In this document: positions 1,826 through 23,625 of the stretch, one piece after another
How the letters are laid out: every line of letters starts with the position of its first letter
Position numbering within the stretch: position 1 is the stretch's first letter
Source: a virus
IMG/VR virus record: IMGVR_UViG_3300045988_092374
Coordinates: 1 to 41,990 of that record
DNA length: 41,990 nt
Reading direction: 5' to 3' (one strand)
Program-made: the position numbers and the translations under genes
The notes under the pieces: generated by a model
The model's input: the letters and a program-made list of their open reading frames with translations, nothing else
Told to the model about the DNA's origin: nothing
The model's database searches: none

Positions 1826-2458
1826 TTATTCAATGTTGAGAATTGCGGTTACACTAGGGGCATTGTCACTCCAGTCAAATATATCCTCTACAACGAATGT
1901 AATAGGGCTTGTATCAGTTAATAAAAATGCATCTCCTATGTTTAGCGTATATCCAGGCATGATTTTTTTATATTCATTCTCTACGGATTGATTTTCATCC
2001 GCGGATGAAATAACTGTTCCCTTCATCTGCACACCATTTTGATATGCGTTCAGGCCAATCCAAGCTGACATAGCACTCATGGGTTCTGTGGCTTTATTTG
2101 TGTAATCATAATAGACTATTATACAAGACTTTCCTTCATAGTCAGATGAAAGTTCATATCCGGTATACTTTATGTGCCATTTCTCTGCATCAAATTCAAA
2201 AAGGGGAGCTGGTATCAATGAGCCATCCGCCCCAACCCGTTTTCCATCAGGAGTTGTTGTGTTTGCAAGCATAATTCCATTTGTGTCTAGGTAATAATTT
2301 TTCCCACTATCTTCGATCCAGCCAGTTGCATAGCTCCCATCATCATTCTGATATTTCCACTGTCCATTTTCTTGCGCCTGCCAGGTTCCGGCGAAGGCCG
2401 TTATCCCCATACTCAGTGTTAATAATGCTGTTGCTACAAATAATTTTACTTTCCTCAT
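1826..2458 (-). CDS. Secreted protein with cell-wall-binding repeats and a C-terminal beta-rich domain (lysogeny cargo)
   Basis: Signal peptide MRKVKLFVATALLTLSMGITAFA, followed by GW/YY repeats (GWIEDSGKNYYLDTNGIM). The C-terminal domain resembles DUF4352/DUF5067-type domains. Confidence 0.6.
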   Translation of the reverse strand: MRKVKLFVATALLTLSMGITAFAGTWQAQENGQWKYQNDDGSYATGWIEDSGKNYYLDTNGIMLANTTTPDGKRVGADGSLIPAPLFEFDAEKWHIKYTGYELSSDYEGKSCIIVYYDYTNKATEPMSAMSAWIGLNAYQNGVQMKGTVISSADENQSVENEYKKIMPGYTLNIGDAFLLTDTSPITFVVEDIFDWSDNAPSVTAILNIE

Positions 2459-2557
2459 ACGTTTTACCTTCCCTCTTATAAATTTTATTAAAAGCCATTG
2501 GCTATTTTAATTTTTTTGCGAGAACTCTGTTATTCGCAGTAAAAGGTCTTTTATTCA

Positions 2558-2851
2558 CTAATTTTTTGACTTCCACATAACTCTTAAGACAAGGCCGATA
2601 AAAAAGTAAATCCCTCCTGTTAAAAATCCAAAAACAATGATCCAAAACCAGCTTAAGTACCAGGGCAACTTTCTGACGATCTGACTTGGTGATGTGGCCG
2701 ATGCACTGGACGAAGCTGAATTGTTAATTATTATTGGCGTTTCTTTATCGCTAGAAAGTTGCTCAACTTGTTTACCGCATTTAGGGCAAACTACACATTC
2801 AACGTCAATGATTTCTCCGCAATGTTTGCAATATTTAGTTTTTGATTCCAT
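2558..2851 (-). CDS. Zinc-ribbon membrane protein
   Basis: Zinc ribbon CKHCGEIIDVECVVCPKCG, a Ser-rich linker and a C-terminal TM segment LSWFWIIVFGFLTGGIYFFIGLVL. Confidence 0.65.
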   Translation of the reverse strand: MESKTKYCKHCGEIIDVECVVCPKCGKQVEQLSSDKETPIIINNSASSSASATSPSQIVRKLPWYLSWFWIIVFGFLTGGIYFFIGLVLRVMWKSKN

Positions 2852-7308: not shown

Positions 7309-7924
7309 TAGAGCTTACTATATTGGGGCTAGTGACACAGAATATGTGTTACGAAGCTGGAAAACAAAAACCTTCGAAAAATGGTGGTTTACAAAATTAG
7401 GTTTAACCTGCATGAATTTTTCTAATGATGCAATGATGGCCGGGACTGCGTACGAACACAAAATATTAGATTCGCTTGAAATTCCTGGAATGCAAAAGGA
7501 CCGGCAAGTCATAATAGGAAGATTGCGGGTAAATCTGGACGGAAGTACAAACGATACGATTTATGAAGTTAAAACGTACAGAGCGGGTAAATGCTTTAAA
7601 CCTTCAAAGGCATATTGGGATCAGGTGCAAGTGGAAATGTATGTAACTGGATTCAGGAAAGCCTATATTGTTGCTTATTGCCTTCAGAGCGAAGATTACT
7701 TTAATTTCTATCGTGACATAGATACAGAACGTTTAAGCATGCATCCGATAGATTACGATAAGGAATTTATAAACAATGTGTATCTTCCTAAATTCAAATA
7801 CCTGGAAGAATGTTTGAAGGATGGGAAATTTCCTACAGAGGAGGAATATGGAAAGCAAAGGTTATTTGAAGGGAGTATCAAAGGACTGGATAACCGGAAA
7901 TTTTCTGCTTACATTCGAGGTTGA
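7292..7924 (+). CDS. PD-(D/E)xK recombination exonuclease (YqaJ/Cas4-like)
   Basis: LDGSTNDTIYEVKTY gives a D...E-x-K pattern. Its start overlaps the end of the SSAP gene. Confidence 0.5.
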   Translation: MISDHDRAYYIGASDTEYVLRSWKTKTFEKWWFTKLGLTCMNFSNDAMMAGTAYEHKILDSLEIPGMQKDRQVIIGRLRVNLDGSTNDTIYEVKTYRAGKCFKPSKAYWDQVQVEMYVTGFRKAYIVAYCLQSEDYFNFYRDIDTERLSMHPIDYDKEFINNVYLPKFKYLEECLKDGKFPTEEEYGKQRLFEGSIKGLDNRKFSAYIRG

Positions 7925-8420
7925 GCATGATGTATCCAGCCAATTGCCTTCTATGGCTGGAAAGACCTTGCGTATGACCGTGAAACAATGGAGAGAGAAA
8001 CGTAGTCTTGATGCGAATGCATACTATTGGGTGCTTTTAAGCAGGCTGTCTGAGTCGCTTGGGATTTCCAAGCCACGCGCACACAATATTATTCTACGTA
8101 AATATGGACAGCCTGAGACGTTTGACGGCTCAGGGGCTTATATCCGTATACCTGACACCGAAAAAGCCGAGGAAACGGCACTGGAGGCGTCTACATACCA
8201 TATCAGACCAACGTCTCAGGTGGTGGCAGGAACGGACGGCGTGGATTACCGCACTTACATTATGCTGAAAGGCTCCAGTGCTTACGACACGCAGGAAATG
8301 AGCGTATTAATTGAAGGACTCGTGAGTGAATGCAAGGAGCTTGGAATTGAAACTCTTCCGCCAGACGAAATAAAGAGAATGCTTATGACTTACGAGGCGA
8401 ACAGGAGGAAGGATGGCTAA
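7848..8420 (+). CDS. NinB/Orf-like recombination mediator
   Basis: RSLDANAYYWVLLSRLS parallels the RSLDQN..LW motif of lambda NinB as I recall it. ATG 7848 follows GAGGAGGAA. Confidence 0.5.
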   Translation: MESKGYLKGVSKDWITGNFLLTFEVEHDVSSQLPSMAGKTLRMTVKQWREKRSLDANAYYWVLLSRLSESLGISKPRAHNIILRKYGQPETFDGSGAYIRIPDTEKAEETALEASTYHIRPTSQVVAGTDGVDYRTYIMLKGSSAYDTQEMSVLIEGLVSECKELGIETLPPDEIKRMLMTYEANRRKDG

Positions 8421-8715
8421 ACGATTATGGAGCGTATTAACCGATGACATGGACCACTGCTATTTTACAGGCAGTCCAGATGTCGAGCGTCACCATGTTT
8501 TCGAGGGACGCAAAGGGAATAAAGCCAAGTCGGAGTTGAGGGGATTTGTGGTCCCTCTCCGACGGGATTTGCATCCCAATGGAGTATGGTTTAAACGGAC
8601 TCCAGAAAACTTACAGATAGATAAAATCTTAAAACAGAGATGCCAGATATACTATGAGTCCCACTATGGGACAAGGTATGATTTTATTAAAGAGTTTGGG
8701 AAATCATACCTGTAA
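8413..8715 (+). CDS. Hypothetical protein; possible small HNH-like nuclease
   Basis: 100 aa with CYFTG..ERHHVFEG...VPLRRDLH (His-rich beta-beta-alpha-like pattern). The functional call is tentative. Confidence 0.3.
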   Translation: MAKRLWSVLTDDMDHCYFTGSPDVERHHVFEGRKGNKAKSELRGFVVPLRRDLHPNGVWFKRTPENLQIDKILKQRCQIYYESHYGTRYDFIKEFGKSYL

Positions 8716-8817
8716 AACAGACCTCCACGGCAGTTAATATATCACGAAAAAGAATGCCACTGGAGTTACAAAGGGCGGCATTGACCAGCCGCCCACTCCT
8801 AACGAGGAGGTGAGGGA

Positions 8818-9189
8818 GTGAACGATTTTGAATTATTTACCTATTCGGTTTATAACGCCCTCGGAGTAGGACACCAGAACGCTCAGACACGCCGGGAGCT
8901 GTGCCAGAAGCTCCACTGTGGAGACCGTAGCTTAAGGAGAGCAATCGAAGCATTGCGACGTAATTATGCAATCCTTTCTAAGGATGATGGAAAGGGCTAT
9001 TATCTGCCAGAAACCAGCGAGGCTGGCCGAGATGAGGCCAGGCAGTGGCTGAAACGCCAAAACGACCGGATGCATAGTATCAAGGCATCACAAGCCGGAG
9101 CAGCCAAATTTGCAGGTCAGTACCGGAGGCAGCGGCAGAATGAAACACCTGGGCAGCTCAATATGTTTGGCGTGGGTAGGAGCCTATGA
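8818..9189 (+). CDS. Winged-helix DNA-binding protein
   Basis: 123 aa. TRRELCQKLHCGDRSLRRAIEALRRNYAILS is wHTH-like. Confidence 0.45.
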   Translation: MNDFELFTYSVYNALGVGHQNAQTRRELCQKLHCGDRSLRRAIEALRRNYAILSKDDGKGYYLPETSEAGRDEARQWLKRQNDRMHSIKASQAGAAKFAGQYRRQRQNETPGQLNMFGVGRSL

Positions 9190-10019
9190 GCGATTTTATA
9201 AAATTAAGCCGAAAAATTTTGGAGTGGGAATGGTATTCCGACATTAATACAAAGGTTCTGTTCCTCCACATGCTGCTGAAGGCAAACTGGAAGGATGGAC
9301 GGTTTCTGGGCGTGGAAATACCGCGTGGCTCTTTTGCATCATCCTACCAGGGCCTGTCCCAGGAAACCGGATTGTCAATAAAAAATGTCAGGACGGCACT
9401 GGAACATTTAAAAAGCACCGGAGAGGTGGCAGTCAACCGACACCCAAAATTTACTGTATTTACAATAAAAAACTACCATTTATACCAGTCAACCGGCAGT
9501 CAACCGGCAGAGAATCGGCAGTCAACCGGCACAGAATCGGCAACAATAGAAGAAGGAAAGAAGAAAAGAAGGAAAGAAATAAAAGACGTCGTTGACACTC
9601 CGCGTCGAAAGGCCGGGCCAACATCGTTTACCGAAGAATCGTTTGAGATGCAATGCGTCAATGCCCTGGTGCAGTCTTGCCTGCGTCAATTCCCGGGTGC
9701 AAAGGTCCCGACGACAGAAACGGAAAAAACAGAGTGGTGTGTCCATATTGACCGGATGAAACGGCTTGATGGACGGAGTGAAACAGATATCCAGGAAGCG
9801 TTGCAGTTTGCCATCAAGGATCCGTTTTGGCAATCCAATATACGCAGTACCAAAAAGCTGCGGGAAAAGTTTGAGACGCTTATTTTGCAAGCACGTAGGC
9901 CAAAACAGACAGGAACAAGAAAGGCGACGAACAGATTCCACAACCTGGAAGAACATGGATACGATTATGACGAGATGGTCTGGGACATGATGAACGCGAA
10001 GGGAGGAAAAGAAGAATGA
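9186..10019 (+). CDS. Replication initiator / replisome organiser (DnaD-like N-terminal wHTH)
   Basis: FIKLSRKILEWEWY ... SYQGLSQETGLSIKNVRTALEHL. It has an internal iteron cluster like lambda O. Confidence 0.65.
   Translation: MSDFIKLSRKILEWEWYSDINTKVLFLHMLLKANWKDGRFLGVEIPRGSFASSYQGLSQETGLSIKNVRTALEHLKSTGEVAVNRHPKFTVFTIKNYHLYQSTGSQPAENRQSTGTESATIEEGKKKRRKEIKDVVDTPRRKAGPTSFTEESFEMQCVNALVQSCLRQFPGAKVPTTETEKTEWCVHIDRMKRLDGRSETDIQEALQFAIKDPFWQSNIRSTKKLREKFETLILQARRPKQTGTRKATNRFHNLEEHGYDYDEMVWDMMNAKGGKEE
9430..9542 (+). repeat. Iteron cluster (putative phage origin)
   Basis: CAGTCAACCG(G/A)CA at 9430, 9486, 9497 and 9519, interleaved with (G/C)AGAATCGGCA at 9510 and 9532. Confidence 0.6.
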
Positions 10020-10297
10020 ACGCAGGATGTAGTGATACAGACGATAGATTGGACTTAGAGGGGATCTGGCCGGAGGAAATTGAGGCCACAAAGGAGCGGG
10101 TCAAGATTGGTGACAAGCTGGTTATCCTTGACGTAAACCGCTTTAATTGTAGGACTGGTGGCTTCGGTGTGCCGGTTGAAACGGCTGTAATTGGCAAATA
10201 CCCGCATCTGTTACACCTGGAAAACTGGATGTCTGCTACATACGCCCAACTGGCGCAGTATTACCGGAGCAATACCAGAAAGAGGTGCATAGTCTGA
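10016..10297 (+). CDS. Small Veg-like protein, paralogue 1
   Basis: Shares RVKIGD ... KYPHL ... TY.Q with ORF 14009-14281. Confidence 0.45.
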   Translation: MNAGCSDTDDRLDLEGIWPEEIEATKERVKIGDKLVILDVNRFNCRTGGFGVPVETAVIGKYPHLLHLENWMSATYAQLAQYYRSNTRKRCIV

Positions 10298-10665
10298 TGG
10301 CGACGAAAGACAGCGTGAAAAGGGCAGTAATTGAATTTATCAAGCAGCATGGATATTCGCCTACTGTTCGGGATATATGCCTGATGACGTCACGTTCTGC
10401 CGGTGTGGTGCATTCCTACATGACCGAGATGCTTCGCACCGGGGAACTGATGACAGACGCTCCTCTCGGTTCGCAGCGCGCGCTCAGAGTGCCAGGAATG
10501 CGCTGGATTGATACGAAAGAATATGCGGGAGTGGTAAAACAGTTATACAGGCTGTTAGAGCATTGCCGGGAGATGGCGGCAGAACCGGGATGCGCCGATG
10601 ACTGGGAACAAGACGTGGACGCACTGGAAAAGGTGATTAGGGCTTTGGAAAGAGAGGAAAGATGA
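10297..10665 (+). CDS. LexA-N-terminal-like winged-helix protein
   Basis: FIKQHGYSPTVRDICLMTSRSAGVVHSYMTEMLRTGEL matches the LexA DNA-binding domain layout. ATG 10297 overlaps the upstream TGA. Confidence 0.5.
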   Translation: MATKDSVKRAVIEFIKQHGYSPTVRDICLMTSRSAGVVHSYMTEMLRTGELMTDAPLGSQRALRVPGMRWIDTKEYAGVVKQLYRLLEHCREMAAEPGCADDWEQDVDALEKVIRALEREER

Positions 10666-14751: not shown

Positions 14752-15088
14752 AGGCCAAAAGGCTAAATGCCGGAGGCCACTCCCCATACGGCCGCCAGCG
14801 TGTAAAAGCCTGGTGGTCGATTAGAAGCCGACGTTCTTACCGCTTTCTTCATGGCTTCACAAATCGGATAGAAAACGGCGGTTAGGTGACACGAAAGGTC
14901 CCTTGGTCGATATCATACCAGTTGGCTGCTGTGCGGCCCGAAAGATATCCGCTTAGCCAGCCGCGGAGTGAGCTGGTACATACCGGGGACGACCCGGTAT
15001 TGTGTGGAGCATACCATCAACGGGAGATGGACAGGGGCACCCTGGGTTCCGGTTCGATTCCGGATGCGCCGCTTGTATCTGTTTTTTT
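14752..15088 (+). ncRNA. Structured non-coding late leader RNA ending in a tRNA-like cloverleaf (class unknown)
   Basis: GC-rich and non-coding. GNRA-capped hairpins at 14888-14900 and around 14939-14944, plus helix GGCTG/CAGCC (14924-28 with 14958-62). A four-way junction spans 15004-15072 and includes T-arm TCCGG/TTCGATT/CCGGA. T7 run at 15082-15088. Confidence 0.45.
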
Positions 15089-15116
15089 CTCCCCAAGACA
15101 TTTTCAGATACGGATT

Positions 15117-15148
15117 AGGCACTTGGCTTATGGCTGAGTGCCTTTTCT
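15117..15148 (+). terminator. Rho-independent terminator
   Basis: AGGCACT (15117-23) pairs with AGTGCCT (15137-43) and is followed by TTTTCT. Confidence 0.6.
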
Positions 15149-15243
15149 ATTCCTTTTTGGTATTTGATTAAATCGAACAAATGTTCTATACTGATTATAC
15201 AAAACGGCAGACAATAATATGGGAAGAATTTCCAGAGGGGATG

Positions 15244-15252
15244 TGGTATAAT
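15244..15252 (+). promoter_or_regulatory. Extended -10 promoter of the AT-rich island
   Basis: TGGTATAAT lies 29 nt upstream of ATG 15281. Confidence 0.45.
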
Positions 15253-15280
15253 ATAAAAAAATGTCGATGGGAGAAACAAT

Positions 15281-16462
15281 ATGATAGAAATACCAGATTG
15301 GCTAAAAAAAGATTATCTTCATGTTAATGCTCTTAAAAATATTTGTTCTGATAAAAATTTAAGGGTTTCTGAAAATAAAGATATCTTAATAGATCAAATT
15401 ATAGAGTATGCGGGGGAAAATAAAAACAGCAAGAATTATCAGGAGATATATCAGTGGCTACTATCTACTATGAGAGAAGGGAGTAAGGATTTATGCTACA
15501 GAAAAATATATACTGATGAGTTGGAAGTAGCTGCTACTGAAAAAAAAATATTATCTATTTACCCAACATGTAAAAATAAAAATATTTTTGAAACTACAGT
15601 AGAAGAAAATTATTCATTAATAGAGTACGAGTTAATTGGAGATCGTACTATACAAGAGGCGAAATTTACTTTTGCTAAAAAGGTTCTTGAAAAATTAGGA
15701 ACAAATGATTTGGGGACAGAGGAAATATATCCCGTATTTATAGATGTTTATTTTGAAGAAGGTTTTATTGTTTGTAGAACACAACCTAAAGCATTATTGT
15801 ATGAATATAGTAGTGACAAGCTTGTGAAAAAAGAGAGAAAAATCAACACAATTAAAGATGGAAATAATTTGACAAATAAAATCATAGATATTTTTGGCTT
15901 TGAATATGATAAAAAAAATTGCAAACAACGTGTAATGAAAATGTTATACGAGTTATATAAAGTGCATGGAGATACACCAGAGAGTGTAAAAAATAAGATA
16001 GGTAGTATGGAAAAGGATACTAAAAGCTATCTTATTACAATTTTTGAAAAGCTAAAATTAGATATAACTAATATACCAAAAGCATTTGAAGATTTAGGGA
16101 TATTTTTGGAAAAATATATTTCCATTGAATCGAATATGGAAAATGAATTTAAAGCTGATAGAGATGCATATATTATTAAAATAGCTGCTGATGATGCGTT
16201 ACAAATGACAAAAATCGATGCCGCCTCTGCAATAACAAAACCATTACAATGTACAGACATATTCTATGATAGTAAAAAATCTATTATGAATACGAAAGAG
16301 TGTAGAAAATTAAATTTGTGTTATAATAGAAAAAGAGGATATTTGGGTCCATTTTTGGTTCAACACGATGCGAGAGATGGGTTTGGTATGCTTAAGGTTA
16401 AATATTTTGCAGAGGAGGTGGACATTCAAAATGTTTTACAAACAGTTTTTAGAAATTACTGA
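15281..16462 (+). CDS. SAP-domain protein of unknown function (island gene A)
   Basis: 393 aa. The N-terminal LHVNALKNICSDKNLRVSENKDILIDQII fits the SAP helix-extended-helix motif. I cannot assign the remaining ~340 aa. The gene is very AT-rich. Confidence 0.7.
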   Translation: MIEIPDWLKKDYLHVNALKNICSDKNLRVSENKDILIDQIIEYAGENKNSKNYQEIYQWLLSTMREGSKDLCYRKIYTDELEVAATEKKILSIYPTCKNKNIFETTVEENYSLIEYELIGDRTIQEAKFTFAKKVLEKLGTNDLGTEEIYPVFIDVYFEEGFIVCRTQPKALLYEYSSDKLVKKERKINTIKDGNNLTNKIIDIFGFEYDKKNCKQRVMKMLYELYKVHGDTPESVKNKIGSMEKDTKSYLITIFEKLKLDITNIPKAFEDLGIFLEKYISIESNMENEFKADRDAYIIKIAADDALQMTKIDAASAITKPLQCTDIFYDSKKSIMNTKECRKLNLCYNRKRGYLGPFLVQHDARDGFGMLKVKYFAEEVDIQNVLQTVFRNY

Positions 16463-17513
16463 TGGCCTAAATGCGGACGTTGTCAAAGAATTCGATTTCT
16501 GGTTGGCAACTTTACCAGAAAAAGAAGCTAAGTCAATTACTATAAGCACAGTAGCGTCAAGATTAGGAATACAATATTCTATAGCTGACCTTTTACTAGA
16601 GTTTGCATTACGGAAGGGTATACTAAAAAGAGCATATATGCTTGTTTGCCCAAATGAAGAATGCCACCTGCCACATAGTATATTAGATGCAAATGAAGTG
16701 CGAAATATGCTGGGAAAGGAAGAGTATTGTCATAATTGCCAAGAAGAGTTTGTTGTTGATCTAACTTGTATTATAAATATATATCAACGAAATAAGAAGC
16801 CTGATGTGTCAGATAGAATAATTAGGGATGAAATAATTAAAAGATTAGGTTTTGGAAAAGATGGTTTTGAGAATGAAATAAATTTTAATATAGCTGATTC
16901 TTTGGGGGCTAATAAAAAAGAAGTATATAATTTGTATTATGCTCCTGATGAATCAGCATATAAAAGATTCAAAATAATGAAAGATAAACTTGATTGGAAT
17001 TATGGGAAGGATACCACAGCTCAAGGAAAAGCATTAGAGATTTTAGCACTAGACATATTTAACCAAATACAAGGAGTCAGGTGTACTAATGATGTTAAAA
17101 CGAAAACTAACCAATTTGATTGCACTTGCTTATGCGGGATAAAGACAATCTTTCCATCAGTATTTTCTTATTTAGCTCCATATTTTCTTATTGAATGTAA
17201 GAATGAACCTAAAAAGAAGCCTAATAATACATATTGCAATAAGTTACTTAGTATTATGGATACAAATGAAGCACAGGTGGGAATTGTTTTCGGAAGAATA
17301 AATGCAACGGAACCTTGCTTTGTTATCTCAAGGGAGCATTACTTAAAACATTCAGAATCAAGAAGGCAACAAATTATTTTAACGTTCTCCGATGATGATT
17401 GGAATTGTTTAATTGACAATAAGGTTAACCTTTTAGCATATTTAGAATATAAGATATTTCAAATAACATCAAATTCCCCAGATGCTTCATATGAAATGTT
17501 TATTAAAAAGTAA
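16431..17513 (+). CDS. wHTH / zinc-ribbon / Mrr-like PD-(D/E)xK nuclease (island gene B)
   Basis: ATG 16431 follows AGAGGAGG and overlaps gene A by 32 nt. Motifs: CPNEEC...CHNC, then GKALEILALDIF ... FDCTC ... LIECKN ... VGIVFGR (Mrr catalytic-domain layout). Confidence 0.65.
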   Translation: MFYKQFLEITDGLNADVVKEFDFWLATLPEKEAKSITISTVASRLGIQYSIADLLLEFALRKGILKRAYMLVCPNEECHLPHSILDANEVRNMLGKEEYCHNCQEEFVVDLTCIINIYQRNKKPDVSDRIIRDEIIKRLGFGKDGFENEINFNIADSLGANKKEVYNLYYAPDESAYKRFKIMKDKLDWNYGKDTTAQGKALEILALDIFNQIQGVRCTNDVKTKTNQFDCTCLCGIKTIFPSVFSYLAPYFLIECKNEPKKKPNNTYCNKLLSIMDTNEAQVGIVFGRINATEPCFVISREHYLKHSESRRQQIILTFSDDDWNCLIDNKVNLLAYLEYKIFQITSNSPDASYEMFIKK

Positions 17514-19871: not shown

Positions 19872-21461
19872 ATGAGGTGGACGCAGAAATTGAGTGAAAA
19901 TATTAAACGAGGAATCCGGAGCTGGTTGAACGTCACGCCGGCGAACCCATACAGCATTCAGATCCAGGAGACCATGGATTTTGAACTGTCGGCAATCCGA
20001 AACCGTATCTGGTACCGCGGAGACAGCAGCGAACTGGAACAGATGTATCAGCAGAACCCGGAATGGGCGGACAAGTATAAGTTCTGGGCGTCCAAGTGTA
20101 CCCCGGGCATGGAGATGCGAAAAATCCACACAGGGCTGCCGGGACTCATCATCCGGATACTGACAGCGATTGTCCTGGCCGACATGAACGACTTCGAGTT
20201 TGATTCTCCGGCCCAGGAACGGCTCTGGAAGGAGATTGAGAAAGAGAATAAGTTCCGCAAGGCGTTGGAGAAGAGCCTGAAAGAGGTGCTGTACATCGGT
20301 GACGGTGCATACAAGGTGACCATCGACACGGCCCTGAGCCAGTACCCGATACTTGAGTGGTATCCAGGGGAACGCATTGAAATTATAAAGGAGCGCGGAC
20401 GGCTGAAAGAGGTGGTCTTTAAAACACCGTACACGGTGCGGAGCCAGCAGTACATCCTGTATGAGCACTATGGATATGGATATATCCGTAACGAGCTATA
20501 CAAGGGAGATACGCAGGTGGACTTAGGTGCCATAGAGGCTACGAGCGGGATTAAGGATACAACTTTTGACAGGACGACCATCCTGGCCGTTCCCCTGCAG
20601 GTATACGAGTCAACGAAGTACGAGGGCCGCGGAGGCTCTGTTTTTGATGGCAAATTGGACAGTTTTGATGCTTTCGACGAGGCATGGAGCCAGTGGATGG
20701 ACGCTCTGCGGGCTGGCAGGGCTAAGACGTACATACCGGAGTGTCTGGTACCGCATGACCCGGCAACCGGACAGATTTTAAAGCCAAATCCGTTTGACTG
20801 CCGATACTTTGCTTCTGACAATGACATGGGTGAGAAAGCAGAGAACAAAGTTAATACAGACCAGCCGTCCATCCCGCACGATAGCTATCTGGCCAGTTAT
20901 GTGACGGCGCTTGACCTTTGTCTGCAAGGCGTCATCAGCCCGTCCACGCTTGGCATTGATGTGAAAAAGCTGGACAACGCCGAGGCGCAGCGGGAGAAGG
21001 AGAAAGCGACGCTCTACACCCGGAACGCCATCATCGAAGCCCTGCAAGAGACGCTGCCGGATGTGGTGGCTGCTTGCATCAATGCCTATCACATCTTGTT
21101 TAAACAGCCCATAGAAGAGATTAAGGTGGAGATTCCCTTCGGTGAGTACGCAAACCCCAGCTTTGAAAGTCAGGTGGAGACTCTTTCTAAGGCGCGGCCC
21201 GGCGCAAGCATCATGTCTATAGAAGCTCAGGTGGAGGAGATGTGGGGAGACAGCAAAGACGAGACGTGGAAGGCCGAAGAAGTGAAGCGATTAAAAGCGG
21301 AGCAAGGAATTGCAGAGGAAGAGGAGCCTGGAGTAAACTTGGCTGCCGGTAGTTTCCGCGTCAATATGGAGGGAGGAAAGGCAGATGAAGGTCAAGGTAA
21401 TGAACCGGACGTACCAGATGGGCCGGGAGGAGTACCAGGGGCTCCTGCAGGTGGCGCGTGA
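19872..21461 (+). CDS. Portal protein (SPP1 gp6-like)
   Basis: 529 aa, positioned after terL, with an acidic Gly/Pro-rich C-terminus. Confidence 0.8.
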   Translation: MRWTQKLSENIKRGIRSWLNVTPANPYSIQIQETMDFELSAIRNRIWYRGDSSELEQMYQQNPEWADKYKFWASKCTPGMEMRKIHTGLPGLIIRILTAIVLADMNDFEFDSPAQERLWKEIEKENKFRKALEKSLKEVLYIGDGAYKVTIDTALSQYPILEWYPGERIEIIKERGRLKEVVFKTPYTVRSQQYILYEHYGYGYIRNELYKGDTQVDLGAIEATSGIKDTTFDRTTILAVPLQVYESTKYEGRGGSVFDGKLDSFDAFDEAWSQWMDALRAGRAKTYIPECLVPHDPATGQILKPNPFDCRYFASDNDMGEKAENKVNTDQPSIPHDSYLASYVTALDLCLQGVISPSTLGIDVKKLDNAEAQREKEKATLYTRNAIIEALQETLPDVVAACINAYHILFKQPIEEIKVEIPFGEYANPSFESQVETLSKARPGASIMSIEAQVEEMWGDSKDETWKAEEVKRLKAEQGIAEEEEPGVNLAAGSFRVNMEGGKADEGQGNEPDVPDGPGGVPGAPAGGA

Positions 21462-21663
21462 GCAGGTGCCGTTCGGGATTTACGCGGTTGAGAAGCAGGG
21501 GTATGCGGAGCTGCGCTGTGATAAGTGTAGGAGCATAACCCAGCTTAAGGAGTTGACTCGGCAGTTTAAGGCCCGGGGGTACAGGGTGTACTCCAATAGG
21601 GGGATACATCTGGCGGAAGGTGGCTGCATGGCTGCGGAAGGGGCGCTGATGAGTGCGACATAA
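21385..21663 (+). CDS. Hypothetical small protein overlapping the portal 3' end
   Basis: 92-aa ORF in an alternative frame. Coding status is uncertain. Confidence 0.3.
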   Translation: MKVKVMNRTYQMGREEYQGLLQVAREQVPFGIYAVEKQGYAELRCDKCRSITQLKELTRQFKARGYRVYSNRGIHLAEGGCMAAEGALMSAT

Positions 21664-23311
21664 TGAGTATGATGTAGGTGCTGCCTTCCAGGCCATTGAA
21701 AAGGAGCTCATGGCATCCATGATACGGAACATGGACCGGCACCGGGCAGAAGAGACCAAGGAAGGCATTGAGTGGTCCATGTGGCAGGCCGAACAGCTGA
21801 AAGCTTTGGAGAAGTATAAGCGGGAGAATCAGAAACGGTACAGCAAGCAGTTTAAGTCTATAAATGGGCAGATAGGAGAACTGCTCTACCAGTCGCGGCA
21901 GACCGGTAACATGCAGCAGGAAATCCAGATATTGAAAGCTATACAGAGGGGATACCGATTCCCAAACATGCCAAAGAAGTTGTTTGGCTTATTGGAAGAA
22001 ATGGATGGGAAGACATTTCGGCAGAAGGCATCACTACTGGTTAAGCGTTGGAAGGGCAAAGAGGCTGCCCAAGCAACAGCAGAGTTTTTTAAACTTAATG
22101 ACCGAAAGCTGGAAGTACTTATCAAAGCAACGACTCAAGACATGGAACGGGCAGAGACAGCGGTGCTTCGGATGGCCGACGACCAATACCGGAAAGCTAT
22201 TTTTAATGCTCAGGTCTATGCCAATACCGGCGCCGGAACTTACGAGAAGGCCGTGGATATGGCCACCAAGGACATGCTTTCCCGGGGCCTGAACTGTGTG
22301 GAGTATGCCAACGGTGCCCGCCATACCCTGGCAGATTATGCCGACATGGCCATCCGGACGGCATCCAAGCGGGCTTACCTGCAGGGAGAGGGGGAGAAAA
22401 GGCAGGAATGGGGGATTACCACCGTGATTGTCAACAAGCGCGGGAACCCGTGTCCGAAGTGCCTGCCATTTGTCGGTAAGGTCCTGATTGACGACGTCTG
22501 GTCCGGCGGAAAGAAATCCGATGGGCCGTATCCCCTCATGAGCAAGGCCATAGCATCCGGACTGTATCATCCCAGGTGCAAGGACAGCCATACAACCTAT
22601 TTCCCTGGAATCTCCACTGCGGACGACACCTGGACCAAGGAGGAACTGGATGCGGTCGGTCAGGCCAATAAGCAGGAGGCCGAGCAGCAATATGCGTCAC
22701 GGCAGGCAGAAAGATATGGGCGGCTGGCTAAGTATTCATTGGATGAGGACAATAAAAAGCAGTACGGACAGAGGGCGAAGGAGTGGCAGGACATCCAGTT
22801 TAAGACTGGCGGCATGGGTAGGTCAGTGGATGTTACAGAAGAATGGATGGAAGAGGCGTCACCGAACTCGCATGAAGTAGTTGACCTATCTGAATATACA
22901 TTAAACGGCACTACATATAAGGTTGATGGAAAACATGTATTGTTGGATTATTCAGATAAGGAAAAACAGATAGCGCAACTTTTGAAACGTGAACTCGGAG
23001 GCGAAATATTCATGGTTCCCAGGGTTTTGGATCCACCTGGAATATCAACGCCAGATTACATATTCAGAGGAGAGGCATTTGATTTAAAAGAGTTGTCAGG
23101 CACAAGCAAAAATTTGATTTATAATGTGGTTTCAAAGAAAAAACGACAGGCGGGCAATTTTATCCTGGATATTACTCAATGTCCGTTGGATGAGAGTGAG
23201 TTATATAAGCAGGCAGACGATATTTATTGGTCAAGACATACAGCCTTTGTAGATAAAATAATATTTATTAAAGATGGCCAGATAAGAAAAATCTTCAGGA
23301 GAAAAAAATAA
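21653..23311 (+). CDS. MuF / SPP1 gp7-like head morphogenesis protein fused to a C-terminal PD-(D/E)xK toxin-like module
   Basis: The MuF core ends near NPCPKCLP...HPRCKDSH. The last ~150 aa are AT-rich and carry ISTPDYIFRGEAFDLKEL (D ... D-x-K). Confidence 0.7.
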   Translation: MRHNEYDVGAAFQAIEKELMASMIRNMDRHRAEETKEGIEWSMWQAEQLKALEKYKRENQKRYSKQFKSINGQIGELLYQSRQTGNMQQEIQILKAIQRGYRFPNMPKKLFGLLEEMDGKTFRQKASLLVKRWKGKEAAQATAEFFKLNDRKLEVLIKATTQDMERAETAVLRMADDQYRKAIFNAQVYANTGAGTYEKAVDMATKDMLSRGLNCVEYANGARHTLADYADMAIRTASKRAYLQGEGEKRQEWGITTVIVNKRGNPCPKCLPFVGKVLIDDVWSGGKKSDGPYPLMSKAIASGLYHPRCKDSHTTYFPGISTADDTWTKEELDAVGQANKQEAEQQYASRQAERYGRLAKYSLDEDNKKQYGQRAKEWQDIQFKTGGMGRSVDVTEEWMEEASPNSHEVVDLSEYTLNGTTYKVDGKHVLLDYSDKEKQIAQLLKRELGGEIFMVPRVLDPPGISTPDYIFRGEAFDLKELSGTSKNLIYNVVSKKKRQAGNFILDITQCPLDESELYKQADDIYWSRHTAFVDKIIFIKDGQIRKIFRRKK

Positions 23312-23381
23312 AGAGAAACGATGGCCCAACCCAATAAGTGGGGGTCAGGTACCGTTCCTCTTTAAAAGATATCTTATCTGT

Positions 23382-23410
23382 ATTATACGATATTATGCCC
23401 AAAATGTCAA
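23382..23410 (-). promoter_or_regulatory. Consensus promoter pointing back into the MuF toxin module
   Basis: On the minus strand: TTGACA, 17-nt spacer, TATAAT. Confidence 0.55.
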
Positions 23411-23444
23411 ATTAAGCATGTAATGGCTGGTGGTATTTTTAGTT

Positions 23445-23460
23445 GTTGCGATATCGCAAC
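23445..23460. repeat. 16-bp perfect palindrome GTTGCGATATCGCAAC (copy 1)
   Basis: The 20-nt GTTGCGATATCGYAACAG recurs at 40314-40331 with one mismatch. Confidence 0.7.
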
Positions 23461-23492
23461 AGATAGGAGGTGATCCGATTATCTCCCTTTGA

Positions 23493-23518
23493 GGCGCAGG
23501 GTAATGCGTCTTATTTTT
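23493..23518 (+). terminator. Rho-independent terminator inside the late operon
   Basis: GGCGCA pairs with TGCGTC and is followed by TTATTTTT. Confidence 0.5.
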
Positions 23519-23625
23519 GTGCCAAAACGCGACAAGGCCTAAAAAGGTGCGCGGCCGGAGACACCGATGACAATGGATTGAGCAGTAAGGAGTGACACTC
23601 CCAAAATGGAAAGGAGCTTAAAAGA

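Follow-up and report, generated by a model that had tools for sequence, protein, structure and literature searches.

A swappable nuclease-like toxin module of phage MuF proteins is linked to a convergent small-RNA gene that may serve as its antidote

We analyzed a 41,990-nucleotide (nt) viral DNA, IMG/VR record IMGVR_UViG_3300045988_092374, positions 1 to 41,990, referred to below as the window. It is a complete temperate prophage with genes for an integrase, a CI-like helix-turn-helix (HTH)/S24 repressor, terminase, portal, a MuF toxin, scaffold (23626), major head protein (24290), tape measure, baseplate, and endolysin. Our subject is the MuF-toxin gene and the short piece of DNA that follows it. 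The gene is an open reading frame (ORF) on the plus strand at 21653..23311 with a GTG start; it encodes 552 amino acids (aa), holds the motifs HPRCKDSH and ISTPDYIFRGEAFDLKEL, and sits inside the head and packaging module, surrounded by the terminase, portal, scaffold, and major head genes. The portal gene (19872-21461; phrog_533, E 1e-95) lies directly upstream. An earlier note on this DNA, made from the letters alone, had described a 552-aa protein with a MuF core and HPRCKDSH, in agreement with the ORF and with the Pfam match of the core to PF06152 (Phage_min_cap2, aa 10-355, E 3e-32); in PHROG, the protein matches the minor head protein phrog_581 (E 4e-81). The main result is a near-universal linkage between the toxin module at the C-terminus of this protein and an expressed small-RNA (sRNA) gene that converges on it. 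The principal features are as follows.

21653..23311, plus strand: MuF-toxin gene, a MuF2 head-morphogenesis core fused to a C-terminal toxin module (PF06152, PF18451, phrog_581).
22826..23311, plus strand: toxin module of ~160 aa, PD-(D/E)xK fold, Bp1026b CdiA-CT (PF18451) family.
23298..23380, minus strand: small-RNA gene convergent on the toxin (covariance model, fold, covariation, strand asymmetry, mapped homologue).
23382..23410, minus strand: promoter of the sRNA, with -35 box TTGACA at 23410-23405, a 17-nt spacer, and -10 box TATAAT at 23387-23382.
22826..23418, no strand assigned: AT-rich mobile cassette of ~590 bp with a GC content of ~0.37, made up of the toxin module, the sRNA gene, and its promoter.

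We read the sequences that follow the stop codon at toxin-module loci from 80 viral contigs, 33 genome contigs, and loci obtained by protein look-up. They share a common minus-strand architecture, with a -35 box (TTGACA, TTGCAT, or TTGATA), a spacer of ~17 nt, and a -10 box TATAAT that is often preceded by TG. The RNA part spans 65-80 nt in all loci and consists of a long interrupted hairpin and a U-tract that overlaps the toxin stop and the last A-rich codons. A hairpin with a U-run converging on the stop codon was present at 65 of 68 distinct toxin gene ends, versus 56 of 1020 control ends, taken from other genes in the same loci. With the promoter required as well, the complete unit was present at 54/68 toxin ends and 0/1020 other ends (Fisher p about 1e-78). 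One unit definition was used for toxin ends and controls alike, with promoter criteria that admit the TTGCAT/TGnTATAAT types. The loci that failed are pseudogenes, partial genes, contig ends, read-through ORFs, and cases with slightly degenerate -10 boxes.

The unit is kept down to 33% toxin identity, in phages of Lachnospiraceae, Oscillospiraceae, Bacilli, Erysipelotrichaceae, and Streptococcus, and it occurs on both the MuF2 backbone (as in the window) and the MuF1/gp7 backbone (as in Streptococcus pyogenes). RNA and toxin clades diverge together. Close relatives whose MuF is short or ends in an ADP-ribosyltransferase or some other C-terminus have no such unit; small ORFs stand there instead. 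At the DNA level, the cassette had no match among deposited phages. At the protein level, the toxin module was found in 42 deposited Streptococcus phages, including those of S. pyogenes MGAS5005, phage 315.6, SSI-1, Manfredo, and NZ131, as well as S. equi P9, S. pneumoniae IPP24, and S. suis. In these phages the toxin gene is followed by a gap of 102-113 nt, which is filled by the promoter, hairpin, and U-run unit in each.

In the window, the sRNA has a predicted transcription start site (TSS) at ~23375 and a length of ~77 nt. Its promoter matches the sigma-70 consensus at 12/12 positions, and across clades the -10 box and the TTG of the -35 box are conserved. The RNA has an outer stem of 14 bp, a bulged A, an inner stem of 8 bp in which two G.U wobbles are conserved, a 9-nt loop, a CC bulge, and, from its intrinsic terminator, a U-tract (~23296-23306), which overlaps the toxin stop codon region (stop at 23309-23311) and the last A-rich codons. 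The predicted fold has a free energy of -28.6 kcal/mol (z -4.1). Among 14 distinct window-type sequences, 99% of alignment cells are paired, with compensatory double changes at 16 of the 22 pairs; none of 500 shuffles does as well, and pairing in slid controls is 39-54%. One alignment that had been fitted to the covariance model with mirror-strand matches was excluded from these statistics.

Several observations place the RNA on the minus strand. The two consecutive wobbles are conserved as U.G in 13/14 and G.U in 12/14 sequences, and their plus-strand equivalents are A.C and C.A mismatches. The minus-strand hairpin is the more stable one in 35 of 36 distinct loci (mean -28.7 versus -22.0 kcal/mol, p = 2e-7). 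Across the 42-kb window, the covariance model gave one strong match, at 23298-23380 on the minus strand (95.8 bits, E 5e-20), with the plus-strand mirror at 19 bits. It gave no match in five toxin-less control loci, and in other clades it gave weaker matches at the expected position. A known RNA family was considered and rejected, as a scan with 4227 Rfam covariance models of the window region and the Streptococcus copies returned chance-level matches only; a mimic of transfer RNA (tRNA) or transfer-messenger RNA was likewise rejected, as ARAGORN gave no match. The sRNA appears to be a structured-RNA family absent from Rfam, new both as a family and as a companion of a toxin.

Hairpins with a U-run are common at gene ends (56/1020 controls), and one could suppose that this one is a mere terminator or insulator carried along with the cassette, with an incidental promoter match. 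We regard this as very improbable. The U-tract lies on the minus strand and the plus-strand version of the hairpin is weaker; the promoter stands at a fixed distance at 54/68 toxin ends versus 0/1020 controls; and the core sequence is under purifying selection, as described below. A mere terminator is also contradicted by differential RNA sequencing (dRNA-seq), which mapped a TSS and a 70-nt primary transcript for a homologue.

That homologue is SP119_SR103 of S. pyogenes M1 strain S119, which has the same position, promoter architecture, hairpin, and U-run as the window RNA, although its sequence differs from that of the window clade. It was mapped by dRNA-seq as a prophage-located 70-nt primary transcript with its TSS at 1445566 and its 3' end at 1445636, and its predicted terminator covers the whole RNA (PMC6431027). 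It shares 14 nt with the 3' end of SP119_1434, a gene of the gp7/MuF family, and is antisense to the 3' untranslated region (3'UTR) over 57 nt. The same study catalogued it as 'antisense to 3'UTR SP119_1434 and 5'UTR SP119_1432' and proposed neither a family, a structure, a link to a toxin, nor a function for it (PMC6431027). S119 is nearly identical to MGAS5005, and the printed 51-nt promoter of the SP119_SR103 TSS is identical to the minus-strand sequence of the Javan513/MGAS5005 copy; the MGAS5005 coordinate is 1405371. In the S119 data set, the late operon is expressed at less than 3 reads per kilobase per million (rpkm) (PMC6431027). Given the mapped TSS, the identical promoter, and the silent late operon, the homologue is a real primary transcript in an uninduced lysogen.

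Among earlier S. pyogenes sRNA catalogues, the prophage candidates of Perez 2009 have coordinates other than 1405371, the catalogue of Tesorero 2013 discarded prophage candidates, and SF370, the strain of Le Rhun 2016, is not among the prophage records that carry the unit. We found no literature linking an RNA to MuF toxins. The prophage that carries the cassette in the M1T1 clone (Javan513 / MGAS5005; S119 1425767-1465077) also encodes the streptodornase SdaD2 and paratox.

The C-terminus of the window protein belongs to PF18451 (CdiA_C; aa 466-544, E 6e-18, 65-70 bits versus a Pfam gathering cut-off of 26.6). In an alignment of 20 such C-terminal modules, E38, T67-P68-D69, D78-x-K80, and K96 are invariant or nearly so, and an AlphaFold model built from this alignment has a predicted local distance difference test score (pLDDT) of 90.7 and a predicted template modeling score (pTM) of 0.85. 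Its sole significant fold match in the PDB (E<=0.001) is 4G6V_A (Foldseek E 5e-6, probability 1.0, template modeling scores 0.58/0.66), and a profile-to-sequence comparison of the toxin module with 4G6V gave E 5.6e-4. 4G6V is the CdiA-CT of Burkholderia pseudomallei 1026b, a Mg2+-dependent PD-(D/E)xK tRNase that cuts tRNA-Ala, with catalytic residues E187, D214, D223, and K242 (PMC9086364). These align with E437, D468, D477, and K495 of the window protein, each of which is invariant or at least 90% conserved among the 20 phage homologues.

E437 at 22961-22963, D468 at 23054-23056, D477 at 23081-23083, and K495 at 23135-23137, plus strand: predicted catalytic residues, from the alignment to 4G6V.
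K479 at 23087-23089, plus strand: lysine of the classical D-x-K motif, invariant in the phage family; 4G6V has a tyrosine at this position.

The earlier note had read a PD-(D/E)xK toxin-like C-terminus from the sequence, and the PF18451 match, the fold, and the retained E/D/D/K residues all back this. The structure comparison it had suggested, Foldseek on the C-terminus, does predict a nuclease fold, with 4G6V_A as the only significant match. The D...D-x-K signature it had pointed to is present, and K479 is invariant in the phage family, but the catalytic lysine of the template corresponds to K495. From the conserved residues, the domain looks catalytically competent, and it is probably toxic.

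Homologues of the MuF-toxin protein number in the thousands in the databases, many with the PF06152+PF18451 architecture at 60-94% identity. Among other MuF cores with 88-91% identity to that of the window, some stop at ~384 aa, and the rest have a different C-terminus, namely a PF03496 ADP-ribosyltransferase (P0050) or unknown domains (P0066, P0069, P0118). All variants share the junction motif (F/M)KTGG(M/L) at aa 383-388, and homology to variants with other C-termini stops just beyond it; in DNA alignments, homology to the other MuF variants stops at ~22820-22838.

22799..22816, plus strand: junction motif FKTGGM, aa 383-388, common to MuF variants with other toxins (protein and DNA comparison).

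An alignment of MuF homologues, as had been proposed for locating a breakpoint, thus puts the break just after FKTGGM, and the claim that the C-terminus is swappable is borne out by near-identical cores that carry none or a different one. On the right, alignment of relatives places the edge of the toxin-specific DNA at ~23415-23420, just past the -35 hexamer; the AT-rich segment is therefore the toxin module plus the RNA gene. GC content falls from 0.55-0.59 to 0.34-0.41 across about 22800-23400, and the cassette (22838-23415) has a value of 0.369 versus 0.527 for the MuF core and 0.569 for the scaffold gene. The C-terminus had been called compositionally foreign, which holds against the neighboring structural module but not against the prophage as a whole, where 9.5% of same-size windows are this AT-rich or more.

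The cassette also moves as a unit. It occurs on a different MuF core at two other loci (L018, L019), with a toxin that is 99% identical and an identical RNA. An exhaustive HMMER search found the toxin module in 640 clusters (50% identity), always in C-terminal position. The 86 longer representatives carry PF04233 (MuF1; 46 cases), PF06152 (MuF2; 27), VG15 (3), or a portal domain (1), and none of the 86 has an LXG, Rhs, or CdiA-type carrier. Because the carriers are MuF1 and MuF2 proteins without LXG, Rhs, or CdiA, the PF18451 MuF module is a phage-specific toxin subfamily that moves between MuF backbones. In one variant (the P0014-type toxin of L003-L005 and L023), a 1-nt insertion removes the normal stop, and the ORF gains 11 codons (…KKLKRNDGPTQ*). 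This read-through enters the sRNA hairpin region, where the RNA sequence is unchanged.

The gap between the toxin and scaffold genes (23312-23625) has little room for a protein. Its longest ORF has 41 aa (GTG, 23470-23595), and the others have at most 36. We considered the small gap ORFs (14-41 aa, either strand) as immunity peptides and ruled them out: none has a usable ribosome-binding site, and indels of 1, 5, and 9 nt among homologues mark the conserved part of the gap as noncoding. In relatives that share this toxin, the toxin gene is likewise followed by ~300 nt that are gene-free, with no conserved ORF. The gap is 247 nt in short-MuF relatives. Downstream of the ADP-ribosyltransferase variant lie a 43-aa ORF and a 117-aa ORF on the minus strand; one further variant has a 55-aa ORF at this place.

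Alignment of relatives divides the window gap into a backbone leader (23455-23625) and a toxin-specific part (23312 to ~23418). The latter is present only with the CdiA_C module and contains invariant blocks even where toxins are 60-67% identical. Thus, the statement of the earlier note that 23312-23625 contains no plausible ORF stands, and the palindrome (23445-23460), antisense promoter (23410-23382), and terminator-like hairpin (23490-23513) that it saw there are all present. Its further conclusion, that the gap holds signals only and no immunity gene, is right as far as proteins are concerned but too narrow for the gap itself, which has the backbone leader at 23455-23625 and the convergent sRNA gene at 23298-23410.

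Alternatively, immunity could come from a conventional protein gene at another site in the prophage (the lysogeny module, for instance) or in the host, and the RNA would then have no part in it. Small unannotated ORFs are numerous in the early and moron regions of the window, and immunity proteins are diverse and usually lack a Pfam match (PMC5576092). However, when the ORFs downstream of 101 distinct toxin ends were clustered, with locus flanks of up to 10 kb, there was no conserved small protein between toxin and scaffold; only scaffold/capsid proteins and shadow ORFs were found. No small-protein family is common to the toxin loci near the toxin, and the lineage-specific extra genes (YjcQ, VG64, and unknowns) are mutually unrelated. 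Moreover, the cassette moves as toxin and RNA only and would leave a distant gene behind at each transfer. We therefore rate a distant immunity gene as quite improbable, while noting that it is not mutually exclusive with the other explanations.

Nor does the RNA have to be an antidote. It could be a cassette-linked regulator that tunes late-operon expression or processing at the MuF/scaffold junction, or a moron that acts in trans on host genes, with the toxin needing no immunity as it would be made only in cells committed to lysis. The RNA lies precisely between MuF and scaffold; with the late genes silent in lysogens (<3 rpkm), self-intoxication is perhaps negligible; and prophage sRNAs are common, accounting for 19 of the 81 noncoding RNAs (ncRNAs) of S119 (PMC6431027). 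Such a role fits poorly, however, with an RNA that occurs only with the PF18451 module, on unrelated MuF1 and MuF2 proteins, and never with short MuF or other toxins on near-identical backbones. Other MuF toxins have small ORFs at the same position, and the orphan copies that persist beside toxin remnants (see below) would be left unexplained. On balance, a purely regulatory role seems improbable.

Two copies of the RNA persist without the toxin. We scanned the viral contigs for the window-type RNA core and obtained 31 matches, 28 with a convergent toxin, two cut by the locus end, and one orphan (L135). In the orphan, the unit is intact (87 bits), but just ~25 codons of the toxin 3' end are left next to it; it lies downstream of a MuF with a different toxin and that toxin's own 77-aa and 113-aa ORFs. 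At this locus, the displaced CdiA_C 3' remnant and intact sRNA unit lie at 7808-7919 (plus strand), with 7965-10376 on the minus strand. A remnant beside a different MuF toxin is evidence of cassette replacement by upstream insertion. The satellite phage Javan620 of S. uberis (L133) also has an intact unit, with compensatory stem changes and 26 remnant toxin codons. In that satellite, the orphan unit is at 2402-2473 (plus strand), and a second promoter, hairpin, and U-run unit lies tail-to-tail with it at ~2580-2680 (minus strand; covariance model E 0.01); the two may form a small orphan-RNA array. The displaced toxin tips and immunity genes of contact-dependent inhibition (CDI) and Rhs loci have the same orphan layout, with the RNA here in the immunity position.

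Different parts of the RNA evolve differently. A 19-nt core, comprising the bulged A, the inner stem, and the CC bulge, is 95-100% identical in six loci where the toxin DNA is 62-72% identical and third codon positions are 40-50% identical; in three other diverged loci, core identity is lower, at 74-89%. The outer stem is 54-75% identical and still paired. As the outer stem drifts yet pairs while the core stays identical, selection on the stem acts on structure only, and selection on the core is sequence-specific.

Taken together, reading the sRNA as an antidote is most likely the most economical account of the cassette, and the RNA would neutralize the toxin in place of the missing protein immunity gene. 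As to how, we tentatively favor a type I-like, cis-antisense mode, because complementarity is guaranteed by the gene geometry and the precedents in Firmicute prophages are close. In a lysogen, the late operon would be silent and the sRNA made constitutively. Being fully complementary to the 3' end and 3'UTR of the toxin message, it would pair with any leaky MuF-toxin transcript and lead to its cleavage and decay. In the lytic cycle, strong late transcription would run through the convergent promoter and overcome the sRNA, and toxin-loaded heads could be built.

Several points weigh against cis-antisense pairing. Pairing at the 3' end gives no direct block of translation, and the toxin gene lies within a long late operon. 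An antisense RNA cannot neutralize toxin protein that arrives in a virion, the role proposed for MuF toxins (PMC5576092). The constraint on the core (95-100% in six diverged loci) is not required by pure cis-antisense pairing, and conservation beyond that need suggests a specific partner. Finally, an enzyme domain on a 552-aa structural protein is unlike the typical type I toxin, which is a small membrane peptide.

The sRNA could instead act on the toxin protein, binding the tRNase-like domain as a pseudo-substrate or decoy in the manner of a type III-like RNA immunity factor. Such an RNA would protect lysogens, and cells or satellites that carry an orphan copy, from virion-delivered toxin as well as their own. 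The structural homologue of the toxin recognizes and cleaves a structured RNA, tRNA-Ala (PMC9086364). Selection on the core is sequence-specific while the outer stem drifts to 54-75% with compensation, and the elements conserved in it (a pair of adjacent G.U wobbles, the bulged A, and the CC bulge) are of a kind typical of recognition sites. The RNA diverges in step with the toxin clades, constitutive RNA in a lysogen with a silent toxin gene is what one expects of an immunity factor, and orphan copies stay intact without a toxin and with compensatory stem changes, mirroring orphan immunity genes. On the other hand, type III antitoxins are upstream, co-directional tandem repeats that are processed by the toxin, and the sRNA has none of these features. 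In addition, cis-linkage alone accounts for the co-inheritance, and the core could be recognized by RNase III or another host factor. Taken singly, the decoy mechanism is somewhat unlikely, and we consider it almost as likely as the cis-antisense mode.

How producers of MuF toxins avoid self-intoxication has so far been largely inferred from nearby small ORFs, and these toxins are abundant in prophages of the human gut and of pathogens. If the RNA is the antidote, then immunity to polymorphic toxins does not always take the form of a protein, and surveys based on ORFs would wrongly class such cassettes as lacking immunity. In that case, type I or type III-like logic would also apply to an enzymatic domain that is part of a virion protein. 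Should the decoy mechanism be true, this would be the first polymorphic-toxin system with a cognate, co-diversifying RNA immunity, and a new architecture in which a single convergent hairpin RNA opposes a protein toxin. Tractable and medically relevant lysogens carry the cassette, namely the Sda1/SdaD2 prophage of M1T1 S. pyogenes, phage 315.6, S. equi P9, and S. pneumoniae IPP24.

Beyond the cassette, the rest of the gap belongs to the phage backbone.

23420..23460, plus strand: terminator remnant and palindrome of the backbone, GGCTGGTGGTATTTTT, then GTTGCGATATCGCAAC (23445-23460).
23455..23625, plus strand: scaffold-gene leader, near-invariant in all relatives with any MuF C-terminus (alignment, terminator scan, fold).

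The leader (~170 nt) has ~100 consecutive identical columns even beside differing genes and is conserved beyond the neighboring coding DNA. It has three hairpins, including a terminator-like one at 23490-23513 with a U-run, and may be an attenuator or processing element for scaffold/capsid expression; it is backbone and not toxin-related. After the cassette, relatives have a plus-strand intrinsic terminator (CCACCAG...CCGGTGG+TATTTTT in L003, L009, and L135); the window and L001 no longer have its 5' arm, and the palindrome GTTGCGATATCGCAAC at 23445-23460 is kept in the backbone. A 5' palindrome, AAGATATCTT, was considered as a shared operator and rejected, with 4 matches in the window versus 1.8 expected and 10% of shuffles equal. 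A small protein of 80-113 aa starting MKYRKKPVVIEA.QW… and without a Pfam match recurs between MuF and scaffold genes of unrelated phages with any toxin type (L011 7195-7470; L131 2561-2803; L132 3305-3595; L135 7965-8306, minus strand) and is a mobile moron of the MuF/scaffold hotspot.

Elsewhere in the window, a 92-aa ORF at 21385-21663 (plus strand; phrog_25639, function unassigned there) overlaps the 3' end of the portal gene and adjoins the MuF start. A counterpart of 62-92 aa was called in all relatives, short-MuF phages included, and the ORF is thus not toxin-related. The most AT-rich block of the prophage (14850-17250, GC down to ~0.26) lies between the replication and packaging modules and could be an accessory or defence island. 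Two large, overlapping plus-strand ORFs there (15281-16462 and 16368-17513; 393 and 381 aa) had no Pfam or PADLOC match and no meaningful PHROG match. Beside the integrase, a minus-strand gene at 1826-2458 encodes a protein with choline-binding repeats and DUF5067, likely a lysogenic-conversion or cell-surface moron.

The MuF toxin itself is an already known class. Jamet 2017 defined the MuF toxins of temperate Firmicute phages; there, PF06152 is treated as 'MuF2,' and the toxin domains listed include that of Bp1026b (cd13442) (PMC5576092). The window protein shares with these toxins the MuF-superfamily N-terminus, a gene placed after the portal, variable C-termini on near-identical cores, and a temperate gut-Firmicute prophage. 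In that survey, a small ORF (<150 aa, a candidate immunity gene) followed 89% of MuF toxin genes, and no RNA partner was mentioned (PMC5576092); here, by contrast, no conserved ORF follows the toxin gene, and a convergent sRNA gene stands in its place.

The CdiA-CT/CdiI pair of Bp1026b (4G6V) has the same PF18451 family, fold, and catalytic E/D/D/K constellation. The two toxins differ in sequence (~20% identity) and in carrier, which is a phage head protein here and the type V secreted CdiA there. The phage family also keeps the D-x-K lysine K479, and downstream there is an sRNA gene and not a CdiI-like protein gene.

If the RNA inhibits the protein directly, the closest parallel is with type III systems such as ToxIN, CptIN, and TenpIN, where an endoribonuclease toxin is neutralized by a cognate structured RNA. 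Their RNAs are upstream, co-directional tandem repeats, separated from the toxin by a terminator and processed by it, whereas here there is a single, downstream, convergent hairpin. No repeats were seen in the RNA unit by direct inspection; no separate tandem-repeat scan was made.

The cis-antisense mode recalls the type I systems txpA/RatA, bsrG/SR4, and yonT/SR6, which likewise have a short, structured, constitutive prophage RNA that is convergent with the toxin gene and overlaps its 3' end. In yonT/SR6, a prophage type I system, transcription is convergent with a 3' overlap, a geometry like the one here (PMC5848175). In the par locus, Fst RNAI/RNAII share a terminator, and the sRNA here likewise lies where the terminator is shared. 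Unlike the 30-60-aa membrane peptides of those type I systems, which have their own promoter, the toxin here is a domain of a 552-aa late-operon structural protein, and the overlap covers only ~10-14 nt of its ORF.

RalR/RalA and SymE/SymR are type I systems, located on a prophage or on the chromosome, in which nuclease toxins are countered by a small RNA. RalR/RalA of the rac prophage has been cited as a case of an RNA antitoxin in the MuF context (PMC5576092). Both pairs differ from the present cassette in toxin fold, gene layout, and host phylum, and their toxins are encoded by stand-alone genes, but they provide a precedent for RNA antitoxins that act beyond membrane peptides.

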